This document shows positions 1 to 62,283 of a DNA stretch of 62,283 nt, piece by piece. Source of the stretch: a phage. The notes beneath the pieces were generated by a model. It searched no databases, was not told the origin of the DNA, and saw nothing but the letters and a program-made list of their open reading frames with translations. A program made the translations under genes and the position numbers. Numbering within the stretch: the stretch's first letter is position 1; each line of letters opens with the position of its first letter. The stretch lies in sequence record PZ793367.1; one strand, given 5' to 3'.

Positions 1-747
1 ATGACACCAGAAACCCGCGCGGGGTTTATCCTGGAGTACATCGAAGGCGACCTGACCGATCAGTTGCTGGCGGCAAAGTACGGCCTCGATGACTACCAGT
101 TTAAAACCGCTGTACATATCGGAACCGGGAACATCATCAAGCCGGAACCTCTAACCCGTGGATTAAAGCGCGGTATGCGTAACAGTATGGCGGTGACTCA
201 TCTCGCTACCAAAACACTTGACGCTGAAGAGATGGCATTGAGTCCCCTTCAGTCGGCTGAGATTATCGAACCGAAGGCGCGCGACCTGGCGCTATTCCTC
301 AATAACGCGGAGCTATCTTTCGCTAATAACGTGCTCAGGGGAATGAACGCCACCGCAGCAGCCGCCGCCAGCTTTGAGATCTTCAATAAACAACTGGCTG
401 ATAAGAAGGCCGCCGAATTATTGCGGTCATCTCACGTTGCCGACTACCTGGCGAGCATGAAGGGCCGCAGCTTATTCGCACCAGTAAGGAACAAAGCGTA
501 TCTCGAAGCCGTGCTATGGCAGGTCATCGACCGTGGCCTACAACTGAAACAGGAAGTCGACACGCTTACAGGGTTACCAGTAGAAGGCCAATGTAAGTAC
601 GATCCGAAATCTGTCATTGCTGCAAGTGCGTTACTGTCACGCCTCAAAGGCTGGGATAACGTGGAGCAGGGACAAGGTGAAGCCGAAACACAACGCGATC
701 GCTTACGTCGACTGCAAGCAAACTTTAAACAGAATGGGGGTGAGTGA
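1..747 (+). CDS. putative terminase small subunit (DNA-packaging protein)
   Basis: 248-aa ORF directly upstream of and overlapping (TGATG) the large terminase gene; positional call only, no diagnostic motif. Confidence 0.4.
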   Translation: MTPETRAGFILEYIEGDLTDQLLAAKYGLDDYQFKTAVHIGTGNIIKPEPLTRGLKRGMRNSMAVTHLATKTLDAEEMALSPLQSAEIIEPKARDLALFLNNAELSFANNVLRGMNATAAAAASFEIFNKQLADKKAAELLRSSHVADYLASMKGRSLFAPVRNKAYLEAVLWQVIDRGLQLKQEVDTLTGLPVEGQCKYDPKSVIAASALLSRLKGWDNVEQGQGEAETQRDRLRRLQANFKQNGGE

Positions 748-2378
748 TGTCTAAGCGTGATGTGTGGGAGTTTACCAACACAGATGAAGACGTCTGGATG
801 TTGGTCGACTACTTAGAGAAGAAGGCAAATAGCGTTAACTTCACCTTTGAGGATGACTCGGAGATGGACGCGTTTTTCCTCAAGTGTCGCAACGAGTTCC
901 AATTCTTCGCTGAGCGGTGCCTTGTTATTCGTGGCAAGGACAACACGATCGCCCCCATCCGGCTTAACAAAGCTCAGCAATACATGAATGCAATCGCAGC
1001 CTGGCAGATGCACCACACCGGAAAGGTGCGGATTGTGGTCGTTAAAGGTCGCCAGCAGGGGATGAGTACCACGGTCCAGGCCAGAGCATACTGGAAGACG
1101 ATCCATACTGAGGCGTACCATTCGCTCATCATGGCGCATCAGGCTAAGTCATCCTCGGCGCTTTTCGACATGACCAAGCGTTACCATCAGCATTGCCCTC
1201 CAGACTTGCAGCCTGTTAAGGGTCACGATAACGGCATGATGCTTAGCTTTCCTGAGTTAGATAGCAAGTACGCCGTGGCAACCGCTGGTTCTACATCTGC
1301 CGGACGTGGCCTTACTGCTTCCTTCTTCCACGGGTCAGAAGTGGGCTTCTTTGATGATGGTGCTGAGATTGCATCTGGTATCATGCAGGCTATCCCTAAC
1401 GCTGACGGTACCGAGGTCTATTTAGAGTCAACCGCTAACGGTGCATCAGGCTATTTCTATACCCAGTGGATGCTTGCAGCGCCTGCGGTCAATGACAGTC
1501 TGACGGATGCCGACAGTTCCGGTTTTATCCGTGTATTCGTGCCGTGGTTCTGGCAAGACGAGTACCGCAGCGAGGCTCCTGATTCCTTCGTGTACAGCGA
1601 CGAGGAAAGCAAGTATGCCCGACTCTATGGACTGGACCGCGACCAGATGTTCTGGCGTCGTAAGCAAATCAAGTTACTCGATGGCGACTCCCGACGCTTC
1701 GACCGTGACTATCCGGCAACCGCTGAATTAGCTTTCCAGGCTACAGGCGACAACCTGCTAATCACGGGTGACATGGTGGCCTCTGCGTTGTACTGGGCGA
1801 AATCCGGTAAGCTGGATCCTGTCGGTGCCACCGTTATGGGTGTAGACGTTGCCGCTATGGGTGATGACTCGACGGCATTCGTGGTGCGTCGTGGTCGTGT
1901 GGTCCTGCATTGTGAGAAGCTGAGCAAGGCCAGCAACGGCGAGATTGCTAACCGTCTTCATGTACTGCGGGAACTGTACGGCGTCAACCATACGTTCATC
2001 GACGGTACTGGTGGTTACGGTACTGGCGTTCATGATCTCCTTGCTGCCCGTGGTGCTGCACATAATGTTACGCTGGTCCATTTCTCAGAGAAGGCTACCG
2101 AGGACCACAAATACGCTAATAAACGTGCTGAAATGTGGGTCCGTATTCGTGACTGGATGCGTAACGCTGCCTCACTTCCCCAGGGTCATGACTGGGGCCG
2201 CGACCTCTGCGCGCCAACCTACCGCTTTGATGGTGACCGCCTGCGTCTTGAGAAGAAGGACGAAATCAAGAAACGCATTGGTCGCTCACCGGATATTGGG
2301 GACGCGCTGGCACTTACTTTCGCCTTCCCGGTCATCGAGGGCGGCTACAACGACAGCTATGAACCGGACGTTGCTTAA
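747..2378 (+). CDS. terL: terminase large subunit
   Basis: Walker-A-like VKGRQQGMST and ESTANG segment, ATPase then nuclease-like C-terminal half; ATG at 747 preferred over GTG at 744. Confidence 0.8.
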   Translation: MSKRDVWEFTNTDEDVWMLVDYLEKKANSVNFTFEDDSEMDAFFLKCRNEFQFFAERCLVIRGKDNTIAPIRLNKAQQYMNAIAAWQMHHTGKVRIVVVKGRQQGMSTTVQARAYWKTIHTEAYHSLIMAHQAKSSSALFDMTKRYHQHCPPDLQPVKGHDNGMMLSFPELDSKYAVATAGSTSAGRGLTASFFHGSEVGFFDDGAEIASGIMQAIPNADGTEVYLESTANGASGYFYTQWMLAAPAVNDSLTDADSSGFIRVFVPWFWQDEYRSEAPDSFVYSDEESKYARLYGLDRDQMFWRRKQIKLLDGDSRRFDRDYPATAELAFQATGDNLLITGDMVASALYWAKSGKLDPVGATVMGVDVAAMGDDSTAFVVRRGRVVLHCEKLSKASNGEIANRLHVLRELYGVNHTFIDGTGGYGTGVHDLLAARGAAHNVTLVHFSEKATEDHKYANKRAEMWVRIRDWMRNAASLPQGHDWGRDLCAPTYRFDGDRLRLEKKDEIKKRIGRSPDIGDALALTFAFPVIEGGYNDSYEPDVA

Positions 2379-22393: not shown

Positions 22394-22434
22394 ATGTGCT
22401 ATGCTTCCCCTATCAACAAGGGGGAGCATTTCTA

Positions 22435-25400
22435 ATGGCTAGTAACATCGACCTTTCTGGACTGGACTTATCCCAGCCAAATCAACAACCTGCAACGAAG
22501 AAGTCTGAAAAGACTGCACCTGCTATTGACCTGTCGACGGTTAACTTTGACCTGAGCGACGTAGACTTTTCCGGTATTGGAAATGAGAAGGCTGTCACAG
22601 AACCAGCAAAAGAAGATAGCTGGGGCGACGTAATTTACAAATCTCTCGCCGCGATGCCTGAGCGTATGCAACGTTCATGGCAGGGTATCAAACAAGGCGT
22701 GGCCGTTAAAGGTCAAGACCTGACTGACGGGGTGCTGGCTGAACGCCTGCGTAACGATCCGTCATATGCTGCCGAACTGGGGATTGACCCGGCTACCTTT
22801 ACCGCTGCCGAAGGCGACACGTATGCGACCAAACTGCAAAAGAATAAAGCTCTCTACGCCGCTATTGATAAAGCGAAGGCCGCAGAACTGAATAAGGATG
22901 CCGACTTTGTTGCCGCGCGTGATGAAGGTCTTCGCCTGTCAAACGAGATTGCCAAAACTGCACCGAAGACTGGTGACGAGTGGTCAGCTAAAAACCTGGT
23001 ATCCACAATCCTCACTGGCGCGCAGGACATGTCTCCGGCAATCCTGACGTCCATCCTGTTGAAGCGTCCGGTCGCTGGCCTCGCTGAGATGACTGGTCAG
23101 GCGTACGGTTCCTACTATCAGGACTCAATCGACAAAGGTCTGTCTCCGGCAGAAGCCGATAACCGCGCTACCATGTTCGCCGCACTGGAACCAATCACTG
23201 AAGCGGTACCGCTGGGCCTCATCATGAAGAAGGGTGCGACTAGCCTGACTGACCTCGGTAAGTCTGCAATGGCTGAAGGTATCCAGGAGTCCGCTACCCA
23301 GGCTATCCAGAACGGTTACGACATTGGTGTGCTTGACGAAGATATGACGGTAGGCCAGTTCCTGAATGACGTGGCGTTCTCCGGTGTAACTGGTGCTGGC
23401 GTAGGTGGCGTGCTGCATGGCGCGGTGCAAGCTCCCGGCATGGTCAAAGACTGGAAGGATAACCGCTCTGTTAACAACGCTATCGGTGACGCTGCGGCTG
23501 AGTCCGGTCAGGCGGTAGAAGGCGTGGACCCGAACGAGTACGACGCTGTGCGTGCTGAGATGGGCGGCGGTGACGTGCTGGACCAGATGGTTGAACAGGC
23601 ATCTCCTGCAATCACTGAAGCTCGCAAGTCTGCCTACATGGAAGCGCGCGCCCAGGGTATGTCTCCGGCTGAAGCGATGGCCGCATCCCGTGAAGTCGGT
23701 GAAGTCGACGCTATGGATCAGATGGTCAGCGAACTGTTCGACTCCCCGGACTCCATCTACTATGCGAACAAGGCAAGCGCCACTAACGCACCGCAGTCTG
23801 TAGCACAGATGGTACAGCAGCAGGTAGCGCAGGGTGACATTGGTCCGCTTCCGGGCGAGACTAAAGGTCTGCCGTCTCCGGGGCAAACTTCCACCATCGC
23901 TATGCCCGGTCCAGTTGCGCAGGTTAAAGAGGCCACTGGCTACAATCCACGCGGTGCGGCTGAAGAGTCTCCGGTACTGGCAGCAGTCCAGCAGAAACTG
24001 GAAGCGCCAGCACTGCCGCCGCAGGTTACTGAAGCTGTGGTACCGCCAGCACTGCCGCCTAAAGCTGAAGTGACTCCGCCTGCGTTACCGCAGATTGACG
24101 TAGCCGCTGCACTGGAACCTACCGTTCCTGCCGCTGAGCCAGCCGCTGCCGAGGTTAAACCGAAGCCAGCACTGTTTGCCCGTACCAAAAAGAAAGCCGC
24201 GCCAGAAGTCGATACAGAAGCACTGGCCGCCGAAGAAGCACGTCAGGCAGAACTGAAGGCGAAAGGTGACGAGGCTGTAGCCAAATACGTTGAGCGTGAA
24301 TCCGTGCGTCCGGCGTTACCGGGTAAGAAGCCGCCAGCTATTCAGGTCACCAACAAGATCCTGAAGGAAGCCAACGAGCGTGGCGTTGACGTCGGCAATA
24401 AAGTGAACTGGAACGGCAAGGAGTATTCCGTCGATAAATTCCAGGGCCGTGCTGTACGTCTGGTTGATGAGAACGGCAACGGTCACATTGTTGATGCCCG
24501 TGAAATCAACGTGCCATCTGTGGTACCGGAAGGTATGAAGCGTGTATCCCAGGAAACCAAAGACGCCCGTGAGCGTTACGACCTGGCCCCTGTAGAGTTC
24601 GAAGATGAGCGCAACCTGGGTGAGATGGTTACCGATGCACAGCAGGCGACCGACGATGTACTGGCGCAGTCTGCCGAAGTTCAGCGTGACCTGGGTGAGA
24701 TGATCGCTGAGAAGGAGAAGGACAACGCCGCAATTGAAGGTGAGTCCACTCGCGTTACCGACGTTGAAGGTCGTGTTGGTTTTGAACCAGTGGAAGGTAC
24801 CGACCTGGACGGGAAGTATGCGAAAGACTCCCACGGTGAAGTCCGCAAGATTACTGGCGTGCAAGGTCGTCGCTTCGTGCTGGACAATGGCGACATCATG
24901 ATTCGTCGCATTGGTGACACCAACGTGATGGATGCTCCACCTAAAGGCGCACGTAAAGCGATGTCGATGGAGGAACGTATTGTAGCTAACACGCTGCAAG
25001 GTATGCTGCATTCACTGAACGATACCAAGCGTCCGCTAAACAAACTGCGCGAAAACATGTCTCACGCTAGTAATCAGGTTGATGAACAGTACCGTCATCT
25101 GTACGCGCCACTGAAGGGTAAGACTCGCGCGGCCATGCGTAAGGAACTGGAAGACCGCATGTCCAGTATCGCTGAGCAGTCACCTAAAGGTCTGAGCAAA
25201 GAAAGTCAGGCGACGGCTGACCGTCTGCGTGAGAAGTCTGCCGCACGCGTCGAGTCTTTCGAGAAGTCACTGGAAGATTTCACGCGTGGTATGAAACCGC
25301 TGGTACGTCGCAACTACATTCGCGCCCTGGAGAAGATCCAACCGGATGGTATTACCCTGAAGGAAACCATCGACCGTGCGTATGCCCGTGGCGATAAAAT

Positions 25401-28400
25401 TGACTCCCGTGACATGTCGGCACCAGCCAAACATTACGTGGCCTACAAAGAAGCTCGCGTACCGAAGAAGACTGACAAGCCGGACGTTACACCGGGCGTC
25501 GACTATCACACGCTGGTAGGTAAAACTTTCGAGGAAGACGGCGAGACGTTCACCGTCAAGTCTATTCACGATACGTACCTGGCTACCGAAGACTCACAAG
25601 GTCGTCGTGAGATTTTCGGCAAGGACTACGCTAAGCGTAAGATTGACAAGCAGTCCGGCGCGGCCAGCGTTAAACCTGCGACCGAGAAGAAAGGGATGTC
25701 GCCGGAAGATGTAGCCGTGGTTGCTACAGACTTCCTGAAGAAGTTCAAAGGTGCACAGGCGATCAACATGTCCGTCATGCAGCGTCAGGAAGACATGGGT
25801 ATCGACCTGCCGGAAGGTAGCGTACTGCTCGGCTTCTACGATGCTGGCAACGTGAGCGCCAAGCTGATCTCTGAAAACCTGACCAGCAAGGAAGAAGTGG
25901 AAGCGCTGTTGCGTCACGAAATCATCGTGCACTACGGCCTGCGCGCTCGCCTGTCTAAACCGGAATACGACGCTGAGATGGATAAAATCCTGGCCGCTGA
26001 TAAGTCCCCGGCGCTGGCGAAGTATTTCAAAACTGTACGCGAGCAATACAGCGACCTGTATGACATGAACTCACCTGACGCACAACGCATGATGGCTGAA
26101 GAAGTCCTGGCGCTGGCTGCGGAAAACCCGGCTATCCTGGAGAAGTCCAACGTCATCACCCGCGTGATTGAAGCTCTGCGTCAGTTGATGATTAAAGCCA
26201 AACTGATTGACGGTCGCGCCAGCATGGAGTCAGTACGCCAGCTTATTCAGGCCAACGCTCAGTACCTGCGTGACAACACTGTCAACCGTGACGACGTGCG
26301 TAAGTCTCTGCCGCCGATGCAGTACAGCGCGCCGCGTAACTTTGCCGCCAGCCTGAAAAAGAAAAATGACATCGAGTCTGCGGAAGTGGACGAAGACATC
26401 AAGCAGGGTATGCGTGACACCATGTACCGCGATGACCGCTCTCTGTTCCAGCGCATCAAAGACATCATGAAAGACAACGGTCTGACGATGGAAGGCTTAT
26501 ATCAGAAAGGCGTGGATGACCTGTACACCATCGCCAAATATGAGAAGGCTGGTAACAACGGTGAACTGCGTCAGGGTAAAGAGTCAGCGTACAAGATGGC
26601 AATGCTGGCGAAGAACGTGAACAGCACCGTGGCCGTCGCAATGAACCACGGCGCTCCGGTATACAAAGACGGTGGCATCAGCCTGAACAAGAACACCAAA
26701 GGCTTCACCGAAATCTTCAAGCCCGTGCTGGAGATGAAAGGTAACATGCTGCCAGTGTGGGAATACTGGGCGGGTGCTGTGCGTGCGCAGCGCTTGATGA
26801 AGGAAGGCCGCGAAAACCTGTATACCGAGAAGCAGATCAAAGACATTATCGACTATGTTAACCGTCGCCCGGAAATGCGTAAGGTGTTCAACCAGGCGCA
26901 CAAAGACTGGCGTGAGTTCAACAAAGCTATCCTCGACTTCGGTGAGCAAACTGGCATCGTGGATCCTGAACAGCGTAAACTGTTCGAGTCCGACGATTAC
27001 GTTCCGTTCTACCGTGTGGATGAGGAAGTGGACCGCGTGACAGCACCGTCTGGTAAACGTGGCCTCGCTGATCAGTCTTCCGGTATCCGCCGTCTGAAAG
27101 GTGGCGCTGGTAAGATGGACATCCTGGAGAACATGGCGCGTAACGTTAACCACATGATCACCTCCGGCTACAAGAACGCGGCCATGCAGAAGGTGCGTGA
27201 CATCACCATCAACGCAGCGCTGGAAGAAGTACCGCATAACTTCAAGCCAGTCGGCATCAGCAACGAGCAGATGAAACGTGCGCTGACCAACCTGGGTCTG
27301 AAGGTTGAAGGTATGACCGCTGAGCAGATGGCGCAATACTCCAACCTGTTCACCGCAGTAGCACCGCAGGGCGCTAACATTATCTCCGTGCGTGAAGGTG
27401 GTAAACCGAAGTATTACGAAGTGACGGATCCTCAGTTGCTGGAAGCTATCGCAGGTGTTGGCCCGGAAGCCGTTGATACCCTCATCAACATTCTCGGCTG
27501 GCCTAAGCGTGTGTTCACCGCAGCCGTGACGTCAACGCCTAACTTCGTTATGACCAACTTCGTACGTGACGTGATGGGTAACTATGTGCAGATGGCGAAA
27601 GCAACTGGCCGCAACGATACACCGACGATTGTCAAAGATGTACTGACATTCCGTCCGTTCTTCAAAGCGTTCCAGGGTGCGATGCGTTCCGTCCGTAACG
27701 ATGCGATGGCTGTCGATTATCATGTGGCTGGCGGCATGATGGGTGGCTACGACAACTCACGTCCAGAGTCGGTTGCCAAAAACATGCGCAAACTGGAGAA
27801 AGGCGGCACCATCATTAACTCACCGAAGAAGCTGTGGGAAATGTACAGCAAGTTGCTGACCGCATCTGAACAGGCCACGCGCATGGGTGTTTACGAAGAT
27901 GTCCTGAAGCACACTGGGGATCCGGTGGAAGCTGCATACCAGTCTAACGATGTGCTGAACTTCAGCCGCCGTGGCAGCAGCCGTTTGACTAAAGCTGTAA
28001 TGGCGATTACCCCGTTCCTGAATGCCCGTGTGCAGGGTCTGGACCGTATGGTGCGCGGTGGTAAAGAGAACCCGAAAGCCTTCATGCTGAAAGGTGCTCT
28101 GCTTGTTGGTGCAACGATGACCCTTATGGCAATCAACGCAGACGACGAACGTTACTGGGCGCTGCCGGAACACGAACGTGATTCCTTCTGGATCATCTTC
28201 GCTGGCGACACTCGCTACCGTATCCCGAAACCGTTCGAACTGGGCGCACTGTTTGGTACTATCCCTGAGCGTGCATTCGAAGCGCTGTACCGTGACGACC
28301 GTATGTTCGGTGCACGCATGGGCTTCATGCTGGGTAACACCTTCGCAATGGACTGGCCTCAATTCTTCAAGCCGATCTATGAAGACCAGACCAACATGAA

Positions 28401-29028
28401 CAGCTTTACTCAGCGTCCGGTTGTACCGCAGTCACTGCAACGTCTGGAAGCTAACCAGCAGTACAGCACCACGACACCGGAGTGGATTAAGGATGTGAGC
28501 AAGGCGTTACCTGAAGCTGCCCCGGAATGGATGCGTAGTCCGCTGCGTCTCCAGCATATGATTGAAGGTTACACCGGAACAGTCGGTCAGTACATCATCG
28601 GCGTAACGGACGTGGCCTATCGCAAAGGAACCGGTACCGAAAAAGTTGCCCCGGCTAAAAAGGATTTCGATTACCCGGTGGTGAAAACTTTCGTACGTGG
28701 CGGTGTGTCCGGCGACAAATACACCGACCGTCTGTACCAGATGAGCGAGAAGGCTGGTCAAACGTACGGTACCCTGAAGGCGTACAAAGACCAGAAGAAC
28801 ATGCAGGCGTATCGGGAATTTAAAACCGAGAAGGCCAGCGTGTTGTCTGCCCGTAAGTCAATTGAGAAGGGCGTTGCCCGGATGCAGAAGTACAACCGCC
28901 AGACGAAAGAGATTTACGCGAACGACAGTATGTCACCTGAAGCGAAGCGTGCAGAACTGGATGCCTTGCAGGTTAAGAAGAACGAACTGGCGAAAGAATT
29001 GAGTGACAAATATTGGATGTTGTTTTAA
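22435..29028 (+). CDS. giant virion-associated protein (putative internal/ejection protein)
   Basis: 2,197 aa from ATG at 22435 (AAGGGGGAG RBS); last gene of late operon; hydrophobic helices near C-terminus; no RNA polymerase motifs recognised. Confidence 0.6.
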   Translation: MASNIDLSGLDLSQPNQQPATKKSEKTAPAIDLSTVNFDLSDVDFSGIGNEKAVTEPAKEDSWGDVIYKSLAAMPERMQRSWQGIKQGVAVKGQDLTDGVLAERLRNDPSYAAELGIDPATFTAAEGDTYATKLQKNKALYAAIDKAKAAELNKDADFVAARDEGLRLSNEIAKTAPKTGDEWSAKNLVSTILTGAQDMSPAILTSILLKRPVAGLAEMTGQAYGSYYQDSIDKGLSPAEADNRATMFAALEPITEAVPLGLIMKKGATSLTDLGKSAMAEGIQESATQAIQNGYDIGVLDEDMTVGQFLNDVAFSGVTGAGVGGVLHGAVQAPGMVKDWKDNRSVNNAIGDAAAESGQAVEGVDPNEYDAVRAEMGGGDVLDQMVEQASPAITEARKSAYMEARAQGMSPAEAMAASREVGEVDAMDQMVSELFDSPDSIYYANKASATNAPQSVAQMVQQQVAQGDIGPLPGETKGLPSPGQTSTIAMPGPVAQVKEATGYNPRGAAEESPVLAAVQQKLEAPALPPQVTEAVVPPALPPKAEVTPPALPQIDVAAALEPTVPAAEPAAAEVKPKPALFARTKKKAAPEVDTEALAAEEARQAELKAKGDEAVAKYVERESVRPALPGKKPPAIQVTNKILKEANERGVDVGNKVNWNGKEYSVDKFQGRAVRLVDENGNGHIVDAREINVPSVVPEGMKRVSQETKDARERYDLAPVEFEDERNLGEMVTDAQQATDDVLAQSAEVQRDLGEMIAEKEKDNAAIEGESTRVTDVEGRVGFEPVEGTDLDGKYAKDSHGEVRKITGVQGRRFVLDNGDIMIRRIGDTNVMDAPPKGARKAMSMEERIVANTLQGMLHSLNDTKRPLNKLRENMSHASNQVDEQYRHLYAPLKGKTRAAMRKELEDRMSSIAEQSPKGLSKESQATADRLREKSAARVESFEKSLEDFTRGMKPLVRRNYIRALEKIQPDGITLKETIDRAYARGDKIDSRDMSAPAKHYVAYKEARVPKKTDKPDVTPGVDYHTLVGKTFEEDGETFTVKSIHDTYLATEDSQGRREIFGKDYAKRKIDKQSGAASVKPATEKKGMSPEDVAVVATDFLKKFKGAQAINMSVMQRQEDMGIDLPEGSVLLGFYDAGNVSAKLISENLTSKEEVEALLRHEIIVHYGLRARLSKPEYDAEMDKILAADKSPALAKYFKTVREQYSDLYDMNSPDAQRMMAEEVLALAAENPAILEKSNVITRVIEALRQLMIKAKLIDGRASMESVRQLIQANAQYLRDNTVNRDDVRKSLPPMQYSAPRNFAASLKKKNDIESAEVDEDIKQGMRDTMYRDDRSLFQRIKDIMKDNGLTMEGLYQKGVDDLYTIAKYEKAGNNGELRQGKESAYKMAMLAKNVNSTVAVAMNHGAPVYKDGGISLNKNTKGFTEIFKPVLEMKGNMLPVWEYWAGAVRAQRLMKEGRENLYTEKQIKDIIDYVNRRPEMRKVFNQAHKDWREFNKAILDFGEQTGIVDPEQRKLFESDDYVPFYRVDEEVDRVTAPSGKRGLADQSSGIRRLKGGAGKMDILENMARNVNHMITSGYKNAAMQKVRDITINAALEEVPHNFKPVGISNEQMKRALTNLGLKVEGMTAEQMAQYSNLFTAVAPQGANIISVREGGKPKYYEVTDPQLLEAIAGVGPEAVDTLINILGWPKRVFTAAVTSTPNFVMTNFVRDVMGNYVQMAKATGRNDTPTIVKDVLTFRPFFKAFQGAMRSVRNDAMAVDYHVAGGMMGGYDNSRPESVAKNMRKLEKGGTIINSPKKLWEMYSKLLTASEQATRMGVYEDVLKHTGDPVEAAYQSNDVLNFSRRGSSRLTKAVMAITPFLNARVQGLDRMVRGGKENPKAFMLKGALLVGATMTLMAINADDERYWALPEHERDSFWIIFAGDTRYRIPKPFELGALFGTIPERAFEALYRDDRMFGARMGFMLGNTFAMDWPQFFKPIYEDQTNMNSFTQRPVVPQSLQRLEANQQYSTTTPEWIKDVSKALPEAAPEWMRSPLRLQHMIEGYTGTVGQYIIGVTDVAYRKGTGTEKVAPAKKDFDYPVVKTFVRGGVSGDKYTDRLYQMSEKAGQTYGTLKAYKDQKNMQAYREFKTEKASVLSARKSIEKGVARMQKYNRQTKEIYANDSMSPEAKRAELDALQVKKNELAKELSDKYWMLF

Positions 29029-41726: not shown

Positions 41727-44147
41727 ATGACCTATAAGCCTGAACAGGCGCAGTTGTTTTATGCCGCGCTAACTGGAATGCAAAACCCGCCGCTCGTATG
41801 GCAGTGGTTCTGTGACTATGACAAAGACCGACGCGACCTGGCTGGCTGGGAATACGCGTACATGAATCCTGCAAAGCTGGCTGACATTCAGGCTCGCGGT
41901 TGCGGCGTGTTCACGTCTGTCAACGGTTCGACTACAGGCGGTCGTGGTAAGAATGACATCGACATCTTCCGTGCAGTGTTCATGGATAGTGATGGTGCTC
42001 CGTTCCCGGACCAGTGGCCTGTTCCGCCACACGCTATCGTCAAGCGCGACGACACGCATTATCACGCCTACTGGTTTATCGACGGTGACTGCTCCGCTAT
42101 GGAGTGGATGATCGCACAGAAGCAGATCGCTCTGCACTTCGGTAGCGACGAGTCAATGGTAAACCCTGACCGCGTTATGCGTGTACCGGGATTCCTCCAC
42201 CAGAAGTCACTGGACAACCGCGTTCTCTACGAACTGGCGGAACTCCACGCTGACATGCCACGCTACAAACTGCGCGACATTATCTCCCGCTTCACGTTGA
42301 CCGACGAGAAGATGATGAAGATGGGCGAGTGGGTACGCCAGCGTAGCGCTCAGTACGTGGGCGGGATGGATGACTTCGACGACAATGAGCACAACTGTAA
42401 ACAGTTCATCACCTACCTGAAGAACCGCGCCGAGCAATCCATCAGCGGCCAGGGTGGTAACCATGTGCTGTTTAAAACTGCCGCCGCCGGACGTGACTAT
42501 CAACTGTCGCCGCAGAAAACCTACGAGTTAATGATTGACTACTGGGACGCCAACAATGAACCGCCGTGGGGCGATGAGATGTGGCCGACCGTCCAGAACG
42601 TCTACAAGTACAGCCAGAATGGTGTAGGCGCACGCTCGTTTGCTGCACGTATCACTGAGCCTGCCGCTATGCTGCCGGGTATGTCACTGACTCCGGTTGA
42701 GCAGGCTATCTATATGCCGGAAGCGCCAGTCGTTGACGAGAAACAACAGATGGCTGAATCGGTAGCACGTCTGGCCGCCGCTATTGAGTCCGGCGACGAC
42801 AGCATGATGCAACCTGACGACATGGTTTACAGTTCCAACCATACGCGTAACGCCATGCTGTTCATGTGGCTGCATTGCCGCAAGGGTGAGTACCTTGTGG
42901 ATGACGGTATCATGTACCAGTTCAACGGTAAAATTTACGAAGCACAAGCGCCGGACTTTCTGAAGGTTAAGCTGGCTACCGAGATGCAACTCAGCTTCCC
43001 GTCTGAGTCAACCATCAACGGTACCGCCAACCTCATCAAGCTGTTGCTGGCACGCTCTGCTCCGTCCAAATGGCCTGAGTGGAAAGGTGATCCCGATAAG
43101 GATACATCCGGTTTGATTTGTTTCAACAACGGTATCCTGGATATTAACGAGAATCTCTGGTATGAGCACACGCACTTACTGCGTATTCGTACCATTCTCC
43201 CGTTTGATTATGACTACAAGGCCACTTGCCCTACGTGGGAAAACTTCCTGCGTGAAGTGTGGGGTAACAGTAAATACGAACCGCTGATTGAACAGTTACA
43301 GATGTGGTTTGGCTATATGCTTATGGATGATACCAGTCAACAGAAGATGCTCATCATGTCCGGTACCGGGGGCGCTGGTAAGTCGACCATCATGCGTACG
43401 CTTAACAAAATGGTAGGTGATTACAACTGCGCGTTCCCTAACCTGAACGGCTTAACTAAAGATTCGCAACTGGCCGCTTTATTCGATAAGCCTGTGGCAA
43501 TCCTGAACGACGTATCCGATCCGTCACCATCCAACGCTACAGCCGTGGTTGAACGTATTAAAGGTATCGTTGGTCAGGATAAATTAACAATTGACCGCAA
43601 ATACCTGACGTCGATTGAGGTCAGTTTCCGGTGCCGTCTGAACGTTACCTGCAACGCCTTCCCGCGTTTGTCGGAATCATCGAACGCTATGCTGCGTCGT
43701 GGTCTGTTCTTCACAACCAAGCGTTCGTTTGTCGGCAAGGAAGACATGACACTGGAACCTCGCATCGACAAAGAGATGACTGGTATCATCAACTGGGCGA
43801 TCGCAGGTATCAAAAAGTTACAGAAGATTGGCAAGCTGGAAAACCACCCTTGCATGAATGACGATATTGAAATCTTCCGCATGTTGACATCGCCGCTTGA
43901 AACGTTCGTACAGGATGCGCTGGTATACCGCGAGGATGCTTACATTACCATCCCTGATCTGTGCAAACGTTACAAAGCGTGGTGCACACTGAACGAAGGA
44001 TCGCGCATGTTCAGCAACCAGTCACTGATAAGTAAGATCGGTGTATTCCCCGGCTTGAGTCTGGCGAAACGTGGCCGCGACTATGTACTGGAAGGTGCTT
44101 ACCTCCGACCGGACGATGAACCAGACAACGGAGTGATTTACGAATGA
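41727..44147 (+). CDS. bifunctional primase-polymerase / SF3 helicase
   Basis: N-terminal prim-pol-like AVFMDSD and THYHAYWF; Walker A GTGGAGKST in C-terminal half. Confidence 0.8.
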   Translation: MTYKPEQAQLFYAALTGMQNPPLVWQWFCDYDKDRRDLAGWEYAYMNPAKLADIQARGCGVFTSVNGSTTGGRGKNDIDIFRAVFMDSDGAPFPDQWPVPPHAIVKRDDTHYHAYWFIDGDCSAMEWMIAQKQIALHFGSDESMVNPDRVMRVPGFLHQKSLDNRVLYELAELHADMPRYKLRDIISRFTLTDEKMMKMGEWVRQRSAQYVGGMDDFDDNEHNCKQFITYLKNRAEQSISGQGGNHVLFKTAAAGRDYQLSPQKTYELMIDYWDANNEPPWGDEMWPTVQNVYKYSQNGVGARSFAARITEPAAMLPGMSLTPVEQAIYMPEAPVVDEKQQMAESVARLAAAIESGDDSMMQPDDMVYSSNHTRNAMLFMWLHCRKGEYLVDDGIMYQFNGKIYEAQAPDFLKVKLATEMQLSFPSESTINGTANLIKLLLARSAPSKWPEWKGDPDKDTSGLICFNNGILDINENLWYEHTHLLRIRTILPFDYDYKATCPTWENFLREVWGNSKYEPLIEQLQMWFGYMLMDDTSQQKMLIMSGTGGAGKSTIMRTLNKMVGDYNCAFPNLNGLTKDSQLAALFDKPVAILNDVSDPSPSNATAVVERIKGIVGQDKLTIDRKYLTSIEVSFRCRLNVTCNAFPRLSESSNAMLRRGLFFTTKRSFVGKEDMTLEPRIDKEMTGIINWAIAGIKKLQKIGKLENHPCMNDDIEIFRMLTSPLETFVQDALVYREDAYITIPDLCKRYKAWCTLNEGSRMFSNQSLISKIGVFPGLSLAKRGRDYVLEGAYLRPDDEPDNGVIYE

Positions 44148-53004: not shown

Positions 53005-53232
53005 TTATTTACCCCACCATTTCTTTTTCTTTTCCAGCCAGGCGCAAGCCTCGTTGATAGTGTTGTAATTCTGCGACATCTCGCCGTTGTAGCGTGCGAA
53101 ATATCCCTCATAAAATTTAACAATTTCGTTCCCGTTGCGATCCGCCCACACCGCCGAGTCGTTGCGACTGTCAAAGCTGGTCAGCTTAAAGCCGCCAGGT
53201 GTTAACGCTAAAGCCTGCTCGATGGTCATCAT
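53005..53232 (-). CDS. small protein of the xPxGW family
   Basis: ALTPGGFKL ... NEACAWLEKK pattern shared with family members. Confidence 0.45.
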   Translation of the reverse strand: MMTIEQALALTPGGFKLTSFDSRNDSAVWADRNGNEIVKFYEGYFARYNGEMSQNYNTINEACAWLEKKKKWWGK

Positions 53233-53423
53233 GATATTAATTCCCCTACCGTTACATTGAGCGCCGCAGCTAACTCGGTTAGCGTTTTCAGGCGCGGATT
53301 GTTCGCTTTAAGTACCATGAACAGAGCGCCACGTTTCCAGCCTGCGCGCCGTTCCACCTCACTAAGACTTATGGCCTCCCGCTCGGCCAGGTATTGCACA
53401 CGGGCTTTTAAATTAATCGCCAT
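53229..53423 (-). CDS. Cro/C1-type (XRE-family) helix-turn-helix regulator
   Basis: LSEVERRAGWKRGALFMV...LTELAAALNVTVGELI; ATG at 53423 sits 4 nt after a UUCG hairpin. Confidence 0.6.
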   Translation of the reverse strand: MAINLKARVQYLAEREAISLSEVERRAGWKRGALFMVLKANNPRLKTLTELAAALNVTVGELIS

Positions 53424-55652: not shown

Positions 55653-55681
55653 AAGATACTACTAACCAGATTTAGCGTCAA
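55653..55681 (-). promoter_or_regulatory. candidate sigma70-like promoter TTGACG-17-TATCTT
   Basis: Extended -35 ACTTGACGC matches the conserved early-promoter family; weaker -10. Confidence 0.35.
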
Positions 55682-56006
55682 GTAAATTTATCATTAATTT
55701 TATCATTTCCTCGTCGGGTCGGTAGGAATTGTCGCGGCACATCTCGTTAATTCGGTCCGAAACACTCCTAAGTTTTTGTTTTAACTCGCAATACTTCAAA
55801 TGCTCGTCATGGTTGCGAGCTATGGGGAAACATGGGTATTCATGCACGCAGCCGTCAGACTTACGCACTCTTACGCTGCGACCTCTTACAAAAACCTCTA
55901 TATATTTCCGACCAATGTTAACAACGTTACCCGGTCCACTGGTTGCAGGTCGATCGGTTTTGATAAATACAACATCACCCTTCTTTAACTCGTTCCACCA
56001 TTTCAT
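55662..56006 (-). CDS. hypothetical protein
   Basis: 114-aa ORF. Confidence 0.5.
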   Translation of the reverse strand: MKWWNELKKGDVVFIKTDRPATSGPGNVVNIGRKYIEVFVRGRSVRVRKSDGCVHEYPCFPIARNHDEHLKYCELKQKLRSVSDRINEMCRDNSYRPDEEMIKLMINLLDAKSG

Positions 56007-61049: not shown

Positions 61050-61790
61050 TTATTTATGATTTTGTGACGCGCTTAACACTTTTTTGCGTGTTTCCTTACG
61101 GTGGCGGCAGTAGTCGAGATAAGCCGCCTTAAGTGGCGCGGCGATATGTGGCAGGATGTCGTGATGGCCTCCGGCACGTTGCACACCCATGATCATTTCA
61201 TTTAGTAACCACTGAGCGAAGTCGGGCCGCTCCATTACATCACGACCAGTAAGGAGGCGATCACCGCCTGGCATTAAATGCTTTGCGTCAGTGTAACGAA
61301 CCGACCATTGACCGCCGTCCGGTCGAGCGGCCAGGGCTGGGATTTGCTGATAGTAATGCTCACAGCCTTTAGCTGGCGCATGGTTGACCCACATGATTAA
61401 GGATGTGTCAGAATGATAAGCCTTCGCACGGTTACGCCGGAACGCATCACGCTTTACCGCTGCACAATGTGTACACCCGGCGTTAAGCGTATATTTGATT
61501 GTATTACTGCACACCTTACACGGTCGCCCGGTGTATGTGCTCTCTCCTTTATGTACAGCGATCTCCCTGGCTAACTTAGCTTTCTGGTATTCCCTGCTAA
61601 CATTCTTGTCCCTTGCACACTGCACACACCCACGGCTGGAAACGTAGCGTTCACGCTCCCCACAATGGCGGCAAGGATTCTTCGCGAGGAATACGGCAGC
61701 CTTGCGCGTCGGAAGCTGTGCCCCGTCCACGGTGTCATCTACCAGGTCGGCCCCGTAGTGGTTCATGATGTCGTCAATGTTGATGGTCAT
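61050..61790 (-). CDS. Cys-rich zinc-binding protein, first gene of leftward early operon
   Basis: Four CxxC pairs (CRHC, CVQC, CKVC, CTHC) in the N-terminal half; AGGAAA RBS. Confidence 0.5.
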   Translation of the reverse strand: MTINIDDIMNHYGADLVDDTVDGAQLPTRKAAVFLAKNPCRHCGERERYVSSRGCVQCARDKNVSREYQKAKLAREIAVHKGESTYTGRPCKVCSNTIKYTLNAGCTHCAAVKRDAFRRNRAKAYHSDTSLIMWVNHAPAKGCEHYYQQIPALAARPDGGQWSVRYTDAKHLMPGGDRLLTGRDVMERPDFAQWLLNEMIMGVQRAGGHHDILPHIAAPLKAAYLDYCRHRKETRKKVLSASQNHK

Positions 61791-61802
61791 TCTTAGTTTC
61801 CT

Positions 61803-61852
61803 GTGGTTGTTGATAGAATCTTAATTATACCTTTATCACGATGATTAAGTAA
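61803..61852 (-). promoter_or_regulatory. candidate early promoter with perfect TATAAT
   Basis: -10 TATAAT at 61824-61829 (minus strand), -35 TTACTT at 61847-61852, about 27 nt before the first early gene. Confidence 0.4.
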
Positions 61853-62008
61853 AACATTACTAACTACCGAAAACCTACATAATCACTGATTAAGGCAGGT
61901 TTACATTTTCTTAAGAGATAACTTAATCTCACCTAGCGTGAAAATAAAAACTAGACTTAACCAATGGTTTTGTAGGTTTCCCGTAGTTAGTAATGTATTA
62001 CTTAATCA
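61842..62008. repeat. 38-bp imperfect inverted repeat pair (arms 61842-61879 and 61971-62008)
   Basis: Arms match at 35 of 38 positions, separated by 91 bp; left arm overlaps the -35 of the candidate early promoter. Confidence 0.7.
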
Positions 62009-62221
62009 CTGACATTTACTACAAGAAAGCGCCAACCCGTGGCCTCTTCTCTTAAAGAGCGCCAGAAATTTTCTTCAAACGTTTACCTTAATCAAACGCT
62101 CAAAGAGTTACCTTACTCCTTCAGTTGCTCAAAGTTTAACCAATTCCCGTAGCGCTACACGAAATCTGAGAAAGCGGCAAGGTAAGACACCTGGCCTTTT
62201 TACGCAGATGCGCGGTATTTG

Positions 62222-62237
62222 TGTGACGCAGGTCACA
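62222..62237. promoter_or_regulatory. CRP-like palindrome TGTGA-N6-TCACA
   Basis: TGTGAcgcaggTCACA about 46 nt before the window end; would lie upstream of the first gene if the genome is circular or permuted. Confidence 0.35.
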
Positions 62238-62283
62238 GTGTTAAGCTATGCAGGTGATCACAAACACATAAAGGAATGACGTC

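Follow-up and report, generated by a model that had tools for sequence, protein, structure and literature searches.

A palindrome that keeps its symmetry but not its sequence beside the first early gene of PTXU04-like phages, possibly a replication origin and control region

The replication origins of lambda, iteron plasmids, T7 (a promoter with an AT-rich region) and HSV (oriL and oriS) have a logic in common. The HSV origins, situated where early genes diverge, are long palindromes with an AT-rich centre flanked by initiator boxes in inverted orientation (oriL has two on each side), and their arms can take a hairpin form during activation. A folded single strand is also what the function of integron attC sites depends on.

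An element recalling these systems is located in the genome of a coliphage close to Escherichia phage PTXU04. As in HSV oriL and oriS, a palindrome with inverted boxes and an AT-rich centre lies between diverging genes; however, HSV is a eukaryotic virus with an unrelated initiator (UL9) and its oriL is perfect, whereas the phage element is 72-86% complementary, has an asymmetric centre of 28-118 nt, and its role as an origin is predicted. Short repeated boxes and an AT-rich region beside an essential early gene are features of iteron origins (lambda ori with O, pSC101, P1 and F), and so are a promoter overlapping inverted boxes and box sequences that differ between related replicons. Iterons are nevertheless, for the most part, 17-22 bp long, directly repeated and not separated by long mirrored spacers, and the zinc-ribbon protein encoded next to the phage element is unlike Rep, O or DnaA-type initiators. 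The T7 elements phiOL and phiOR resemble it in combining a promoter and an AT-rich element near the genome end, but a phage RNA polymerase is not identified here, the terminal repeat is putative, and the T7 element is not a boxed palindrome of 140-230 bp. The hairpin early promoters of N4, with a stem of 5-7 bp, a loop of 3 nt and a virion RNA polymerase, differ from arms of 50-72 nt around a centre of 28-118 nt. The 2210-aa virion-type protein encoded here displays an LPD38 domain only and no match to RNA polymerases.

The window, i.e., the whole stretch of DNA that was analysed (PZ793367.1, 62,283 bp), is a near-complete Xuquatrovirus genome, 98% identical over its last kilobase to PTXU04, itself a Xuquatrovirus podovirus of 61.6 kb. 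It begins with the ATG of a putative small terminase gene and is thus taken as a near-complete genome rotated to terS. The inverted repeat sits in a 493-bp gap (61791-62283), with leftward early genes on one side and the rightward terS/TerL and structural genes on the other. Its constant neighbour is the first leftward gene (61050-61790), orthologue of PTXU04 gp92. The region is composed of the following features.

61050-61790, minus strand: first leftward early gene, 246 aa, its product bearing two C-x2-C-x10-C-x2-C zinc ribbons and a C-terminal domain that is conserved.
61824-61853, minus strand: candidate sigma-70 early promoter of the first leftward gene, from a consensus match, with its -35 within the left arm.
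61842-61910, no strand: left arm (69 nt), its outer 38 nt 92% mirrored and its inner 31 nt 71% mirrored, covarying with the right arm.
61842-61849, plus strand: outer left box TGATTAAG, overlapping the -35/spacer of the leftward promoter.
61887-61894, plus strand: inner left box TGATTAAG, 45 bp from the outer left box.
61911-61939, plus strand: asymmetric AT-rich centre, a clade-conserved oriented motif reading ...TAACTTAATCTCACCTAGCGTGAAAATAAAA and continuing into the right arm.
61940-62008, no strand: right arm (69 nt), covarying with the left arm.
61956-61963, minus strand: inner right box variant, CTTAACCA on the plus strand, with one mismatch.
62001-62008, minus strand: outer right box TGATTAAG, CTTAATCA on the plus strand.
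62039-62049, plus strand: GTGGCCTCTTC motif, at which the linear PTXU04 record starts.
62087-62094, minus strand: fifth box copy, outside the palindrome, 86 bp right of the outer right box.
62127-62283, plus strand: sequence-conserved block upstream of terS, including the palindrome GTAGCGCTAC (62148-62157) and a CRP-type TGTGA-N6-TCACA (62222-62237).

The 38-bp arms reported by the initial annotation (61842-61879 and 61971-62008) do match at 35 of 38 positions (all except 12, 27 and 29 of the arm) and are separated by 91 bp. They form the outer part of longer arms, as a repeat finder extends them without gaps to 69 nt (61842-61910 and 61940-62008), 83% complementary, around a centre of 29 nt. 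The whole is an imperfect, AT-rich palindrome of 167 bp, and no other inverted repeat with arms at most 400 bp apart reaches 24 nt in the full 62,283-bp window. When folded as single-stranded DNA, a stretch of 181 nt including it reaches -38.2 kcal/mol, versus -11.5 +/- 2.9 for shuffled sequences (z = -9.3), a value equalled by none of 200 shuffles. GC content is 30-33% across 61800-61999 versus about 52% for the genome, as in the AT-rich unwinding regions of origins. Arm mismatches are moderately clustered in blocks, leaving perfect runs of up to 30 nt. Smaller repeats are embedded in the structure. The nonamer AATCACTGA, previously described as following both arms, is indeed present twice, but only the first copy (61881-61889) follows a 38-nt arm, one base beyond it and inside the extended arm; the second (62004-62012) begins within the right arm, sharing its final 5 nt. 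The repeat finder also returns a 14-nt direct repeat, TACATAATCACTGA and TACTTAATCACTGA. A 14-bp dyad, AGTAA-N4-TTACT, occurs at 61848-61861 and 61989-62002 and, like box TGATTAAG, overlaps the -35; operators of Cro/CI-type repressors are dyads of 14-20 bp that overlap promoter elements, but the symmetry itself spans 69 nt, and no comparable dyad is seen in the other genomes.

Each arm includes two boxes about 45 bp apart, in the layout > > centre < <. Exact TGATTAAG occurs five times in the whole window, all within 700 bp and four within 253 bp, a clustering of the kind used to recognise origins. Direct repeats within arms are found at a spacing of 43-46 bp with 23 hexamer hits versus 1.4 expected, and show a second peak at 52 bp. 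The box sequence differs by subgroup, such as TGTTTTA(C) in the relatives L010 and L014, and no helical phasing of arm centres was consistent across genomes. In an alignment of 11 genomes anchored on GCGAA/GTGAA, the centre displays in all 11 the same orientation and the same order of motifs, namely a TATAAT-like sequence, a pyrimidine-rich stretch, G[CT]GAA and (G)TAAATA, beside the right arm. This motif may be a rightward promoter; its spacing varies and sigma-70 scans are indecisive. On the other side, the left arm overlaps, as noted earlier, the -35 of a candidate promoter with a TATAAT, which lies on the minus strand (-35 TTTACT at 61853-61848, an 18-nt spacer and -10 TATAAT at 61829-61824; 10 of 12 consensus matches). 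Such hits occur at chance frequency, two being found in the region for 1.8 expected. The -35 of the leftward promoter is likewise in the left arm of HelliStehle, L007 and L008, and is not evident there in other relatives. Scans of 11 genomes for sigma-70 promoters yield chance-level hits in AT-rich DNA, at inconsistent positions.

Relatives were collected from annotated phages (Pondi and HelliStehle), from a metagenome scan (L007), and as further contigs containing homologues of TerL (52-81% identity) or of the zinc-ribbon protein (41-80% identity). Absence of the repeat from related genomes had been named at the outset as grounds for rejecting the element, and the opposite is found: a long inverted repeat is present at the same position in all 14 relatives containing the region, down to 52% TerL identity. 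Their arms measure 50-72 nt, are 72-86% complementary within a genome and enclose a centre of 28-118 nt. For the 11 relatives measured in detail, the element spans 141-230 bp with a GC content of 27-37%; in the same 11, the distance between the beginning of the left arm and the first leftward gene's start codon is -4 to 52 nt. Such constancy of place points to a functional cis element. The module is untraceable further out, since Vibrio podophages (43% TerL identity) have another gene layout.

The arm sequences themselves are unrelated between genomes, yet mirror symmetry is kept within each of them. Over 760 bp, HelliStehle and L007 share 91% identity, yet a core of about 40 bp differs in both arms, 11 of 56 arm pairs being changed on both sides with complementarity kept. 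Similarly, the flanks of L024 are 94-100% identical to those of the window and its palindrome only 50-60%. When the window, PTXU04, L024 and L026 are aligned, 17 of 69 pairs are changed on both sides, a number reached in none of 500 shuffles and to be compared with 2-10 in slid-register controls; 76% of cells are paired, versus about 40% when slid. Conservation is 94-98% in the centre, in the boxes that end the arms and in the right flank. As dS in the flanking genes is already 0.24-0.5 in "close" pairs, a divergence of about 45% in the arm cores is about neutral. Judged from these alignments, the arm interiors are thus constrained in symmetry, not in sequence. The 141 positions of 11 genomes that depart from Watson-Crick pairing comprise 23 G:T on the plus strand, 30 on the minus strand and 88 unpairable, close to the random 1:1:4; in the absence of a wobble bias, the symmetry is a feature at the level of DNA, not a selected RNA helix. 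Taken together, the comparisons indicate that the palindrome is a functional DNA cis element of the PTXU04-like clade (Xuquatrovirus and relatives). The co-variation of the arms may reflect either selection for pairing within a strand, as a hairpin or cruciform, or concerted evolution, in which one arm converts the other or templates are switched. The latter could also yield co-varying arms, which speaks against a need for hairpin selection, and the clustered mismatches with long perfect runs are compatible with conversion tracts. Extrusion of a cruciform from duplex DNA is energetically costly given 17-28% mismatches and a centre of 28-118 nt.

Several proteins were considered as readers of the arm cores. 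TerS and the primase/helicase are 96% and 97% identical, respectively, between the window and HelliStehle, despite unrelated arms. The Cro-like protein put forward in the initial annotation does exist, on the minus strand (53232-53423, previously given as 53229-53423), and belongs to the HTH_3 family; it is 92% identical in Pondi and 88% in HelliStehle, with a nearly unchanged helix-turn-helix core that cannot read arm cores unrelated between these phages. None of these three candidates co-varies with the arms, and all were rejected. No DNA-binding domain was found with Pfam in ten other divergent early proteins. The product of the first leftward gene is the most divergent among the proteins common to three complete genomes (45% and 40% identity); across the clade, it combines a conserved domain at its C-terminus with two to four C-x2-C-x10-C-x2-C zinc ribbons. 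The gene is essential in PTXU04, where gp92 is the sole "Fit" gene among gp45-gp92 in a CRISPRi-ART screen and is tentatively labelled "endonuclease" by HHpred (PMC11879866 supplements). The zinc-ribbon protein is the best candidate for binding the boxes and the sole candidate for an initiator; it displays no similarity to Rep, O or DnaA-type initiators. Its gene has a dN/dS of at most 0.2, and its co-divergence with the arms is ambiguous, HelliStehle and L007 being 90% identical in this protein despite different arm cores. Positive selection on the gene was also considered and discarded, as dN/dS is at most 0.2 overall and locally raised dN and dS resemble mosaicism.

The reading tentatively favoured, at somewhat less than even confidence, is that of a lytic replication origin coupled to promoter control of the essential first early gene. 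Each arm would contribute two short boxes for protein binding, the four being mirrored around an AT-rich, asymmetric and conserved core. The genome end bearing the palindrome would enter the cell first, and host RNA polymerase would fire the leftward early promoter, whose -35 lies within the left arm. An early phage protein, for which the zinc-ribbon protein is the best candidate, would then bind the boxes and thereby shut down its own promoter. Binding, together with negative supercoiling generated by transcription, would open the AT-rich centre, and the mirrored arms would pair within each strand as a hairpin or cruciform, holding the region open to helicase, primase and SSB of the phage. 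No chi sites are oriented to protect the putative leading end. An origin fits best because the element is unique, AT-rich, bounded by boxes and located between diverging early and late blocks, because it abuts an essential early gene and overlaps its promoter, and because the replication genes are T7-like (gp2.5-like SSB, exonucleases) without a recognised initiator. Against it, GC skew is flat, confounded by gene orientation and uninformative for an origin, the replication genes lie 18 kb from the palindrome, and sigma-70 hits are at chance level.

The location exactly between the diverging early and packaging/structural blocks would also suit an early/late switch, which we regard as rather unlikely. 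A phage regulator, either the zinc-ribbon protein or some other early product, would then use the four boxes as operators; bridging of the arms would repress the leftward early promoter and activate or free rightward transcription to terS, as with phi29 p4, and the mirrored arm interiors would be a by-product of concerted evolution, to which the clustered mismatch blocks are suited. The best leftward promoter and the outer left box overlap at the -35/spacer, the boxes are symmetrically arranged, the centre has a conserved rightward TATAAT-like motif, and the neighbouring gene is essential as expected of a late-gene activator. The phi29 switch (a nucleoprotein hairpin of p4/p6, with A2c/A2b on one side and A3 on the other) similarly lies where early and late operons diverge and has several sites for DNA-bending regulators, but it is made of short inverted repeats rather than one long palindrome with co-varying arms, and a homologous regulator is absent here. 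Moreover, arms mirrored over their full 50-72 nt far exceed the length of an operator, their 11-mers and 12-mers are absent from other promoters, the sole recognisable HTH protein does not co-vary with them, the right arm of the window is without a good outward promoter, and the position of the promoter relative to the arm varies between genomes. The same promoter data weigh on a quite improbable variant in which each arm is a copy of one promoter or 5' leader with a ribosome-binding site, giving one transcript each way, the copies being kept alike by conversion. In its favour, the left arm of several relatives has a Shine-Dalgarno-like end, mirrored by the right arm, that comes within 2-20 nt of the start codon, the right arm of L009 mirrors even the position of the start codon, and inner arm ends are often TAAAAT/TATAAT-like. 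In the window, though, the -10 is outside the arm and unmirrored, and its right-arm equivalent is poor (ATTACT, 17 nt, TACAAG); no conserved ORF follows the right arm, and predicted promoter positions are inconsistent among genomes. A structured RNA is very improbable. The transcribed palindrome would be a long hairpin, e.g., an RNase III site or a regulatory leader of the first early gene like T7 R0.3, and the strong predicted hairpin and the compensating changes are in its favour, as is a sub-threshold Rfam match to a miRNA-precursor hairpin model. This match (MIR6217), the sole one in Rfam, scores 42.9 bits, far under the gathering score of 110, and G:U pairs are in excess on neither strand (23 versus 30 of 141, with 62% unpairable). 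In addition, transcription from the best leftward promoter would start downstream of the arm in the window, HelliStehle, L007 and L008, and only about 30 bp lie right of the palindrome in the linear genome if its end is 62038.

This end bears on an alternative judged unlikely, in which the palindrome, just inside a putative short direct terminal repeat (from GTGGCC, 62039), serves terminal processing, either as a hairpin priming duplication of the repeat in the manner of the T7 "hairpin end" or as a packaging stop like lambda cosQ. The PTXU04 record breaks at window 62038|62039 (...AACCC|GTGGCCTCTTC), 30 nt past the right arm, and beyond the right arm, at a distance of 12-52 nt, each of the 11 genomes checked has (G/C/T)TGGCC, which supports, without proving, a real terminus or cut site; the GTGGCCTCTTC site at 62039 is probably the genome terminus or a terminase cleavage site. 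The PTXU04 genome is not circularly permuted (BAL-31 digestion, Korf et al.; PMC6563267), and that article gives no account of how its ends were mapped. Ends of metagenomic contigs were tried for the same purpose and found uninformative, as contigs break inside palindromes, the usual behaviour of assemblers at inverted repeats. Most genomes have two motifs of the GTGGCC type at a spacing of 57-152 bp, possible boundaries of a repeat, and the T7-like replication genes fit such processing. Replication is of the T7 type in SU10 and phiEco32, phages of the same portal family whose terminal repeats measure 193 bp; for T7 itself, a hairpin intermediate is reported, and a fold-back beside the terminal repeat is proposed to help to duplicate it (PMC4281155). 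A requirement for structure only would also explain why sequence drifts while complementarity is kept. However, the linear PTXU04 record has no terminal repeat, though the same study reported repeats in other phages, and a priming hairpin needs neither boxes, nor an asymmetric centre, nor a tight link to a start codon. Lambda cos (cosQ-cosN-cosB) is comparable in that the element stands beside a probable terminase cut site upstream of terS, the 160-bp block being positioned like cosB, but lambda cos has no such palindrome, and the arms here do not co-vary with TerS. It is unlikely that the terminase recognises the sequence of the arms, since HelliStehle and the window have unrelated arms and a TerS of 96% identity. 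The initial annotation, which proposed paired operators, a replication origin or a packaging/terminal element, is thus supported in part: an origin agrees best with the anatomy, and terminal processing is a further possibility. The block at 62127-62283, separate from the palindrome, is from its sequence conservation a better candidate for terminase binding or a late promoter. It is also unlikely, though conceivable, that the element is coded by structure, with short boxes and fold being all that matters while the arm interiors drift freely, and is read as a hairpin or cruciform by a novel family of essential gp92-like multi-zinc-ribbon early proteins that would nick or remodel it for replication start or end processing. 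This would bring a logic like that of attC or of parvovirus ITRs into a virulent dsDNA coliphage. Integron attC sites also keep an imperfect palindrome and conserved boxes at the arm ends while varying in sequence; their boxes, however, are 5-6 bp apart, they work with a tyrosine recombinase and occur in many copies, whereas the boxes here are about 45 bp apart, in one copy and with no recombinase. As for a chance repeat or an inserted mobile element (MITE- or ERIC-like), which an AT-rich sequence of about 170 bp with terminal inverted repeats could evoke, it is effectively refuted by the fixed position in 14 of 14 genomes, the conserved centre, the single copy in the genome, the lack of any match among 5,426 genomes of E. 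coli and 72,556 plasmids, and the lack of a flanking target duplication.

The element is unmentioned in the articles on PTXU04 and HelliStehle that were consulted. It is most likely a palindromic origin or control-region element not previously described, and the mechanism outlined for it is a proposal. As the sole long palindrome, located at the start of gp92 and with an architecture kept despite the drift of its arms, it is a concrete experimental target. PTXU04 is among the few non-model coliphages with a genome-wide map of gene fitness, and a target as small as about 170 bp, touching the gp92 start, could allow gp92 and the palindrome to be given a function jointly. As a clear case from nature of DNA in which symmetry is preserved and sequence is not, the palindrome is also useful for asking whether such symmetry reflects selection for a hairpin or conversion from arm to arm.

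Two GTGGCC-type motifs, spaced by 57-152 bp, lie in the interval between the AT-rich inverted repeat and terS, an interval that also carries a perfect CRP-type palindrome, TGTGA-N6-TCACA, in the window.

62039-62049 and 62191-62197: GTGGCC-type motif pair
62222-62237: TGTGA-N6-TCACA, 62 nt 5' of the terS start codon

In the related genomes or contigs L008, L010 and L014, where the motif pairs stand at 2295/2404, 2104/2203 and 531/648, respectively, this interval contains units of about 100-117 bp repeated in tandem; each unit begins with a GTGGCC-type motif and also holds a TGTGA-N6-TCACA palindrome. The motif pair could mark the boundaries of a short terminal repeat or could represent terminase-binding repeats. 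Of the 11 clade genomes checked, 9 carry the CRP-type palindrome 5' of terS (as at 2586 in L003, 2596 in L004 and 2939 in L007), as do the partial contigs L015 and L016; the other two genomes, L011 and L012, lack it. Where present, it occurs in one to four copies, with several copies each in L008, L009, L010 and L014-L016. It could be bound by the host CRP or by a conserved regulator of the phage, for instance the Cro-like helix-turn-helix protein.

53232-53423, minus strand: Cro-like protein, HTH_3 / Cro-C1-type

This protein is highly conserved in the related phages Pondi and HelliStehle. The initial annotation had described it as Cro-like (53229-53423), an identity that holds; its gene is on the minus rather than the plus strand.

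The inverted repeat itself gives an Rfam match (61839-62011, minus strand) to the plant miRNA precursor MIR6217 with an E-value of 1e-7. This identity was rejected: the match reaches 42.9 bits against a gathering score of 110 and is an artefact that any long AT-rich hairpin would give. Next to the repeat lies the first early gene.

61050-61790, minus strand: first early gene, zinc-ribbon protein

Across the family, its product has two to four C-x2-C-x10-C-x2-C zinc ribbons in tandem, together with a C-terminal domain that is conserved (WVNEPPA...VRYTDA.HL). Searches for a fold or family match to this protein found none, and it defines an uncharacterised family. Its PTXU04 counterpart is essential according to published CRISPRi-ART data (PMC11879866).

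Four other genes were compared with Pondi and HelliStehle.

744-2378, plus strand: TerL
22396-29028, plus strand: 2210-aa protein, counterpart of the essential PTXU04 gp25
41727-44147, plus strand: primase/helicase-type protein
55665-56006, minus strand: protein with a phage ProQ C-terminal-like domain

The 2210-aa protein, whose sole domain is an LPD38 near the C-terminus, is 95% conserved in Pondi and essentially missing in HelliStehle, where the tblastn match is limited to 65 residues with 50% identity. The primase/helicase-type protein is closer to HelliStehle (97% identity versus 69% for Pondi), whereas TerL is closer to Pondi (98% versus 80% for HelliStehle), which indicates a mosaic ancestry of the window. 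Neither Pondi nor HelliStehle has a counterpart of the ProQ-like protein; taken with the CsrA homologue that is annotated in these phages, it suggests an investment in RNA-binding regulators.
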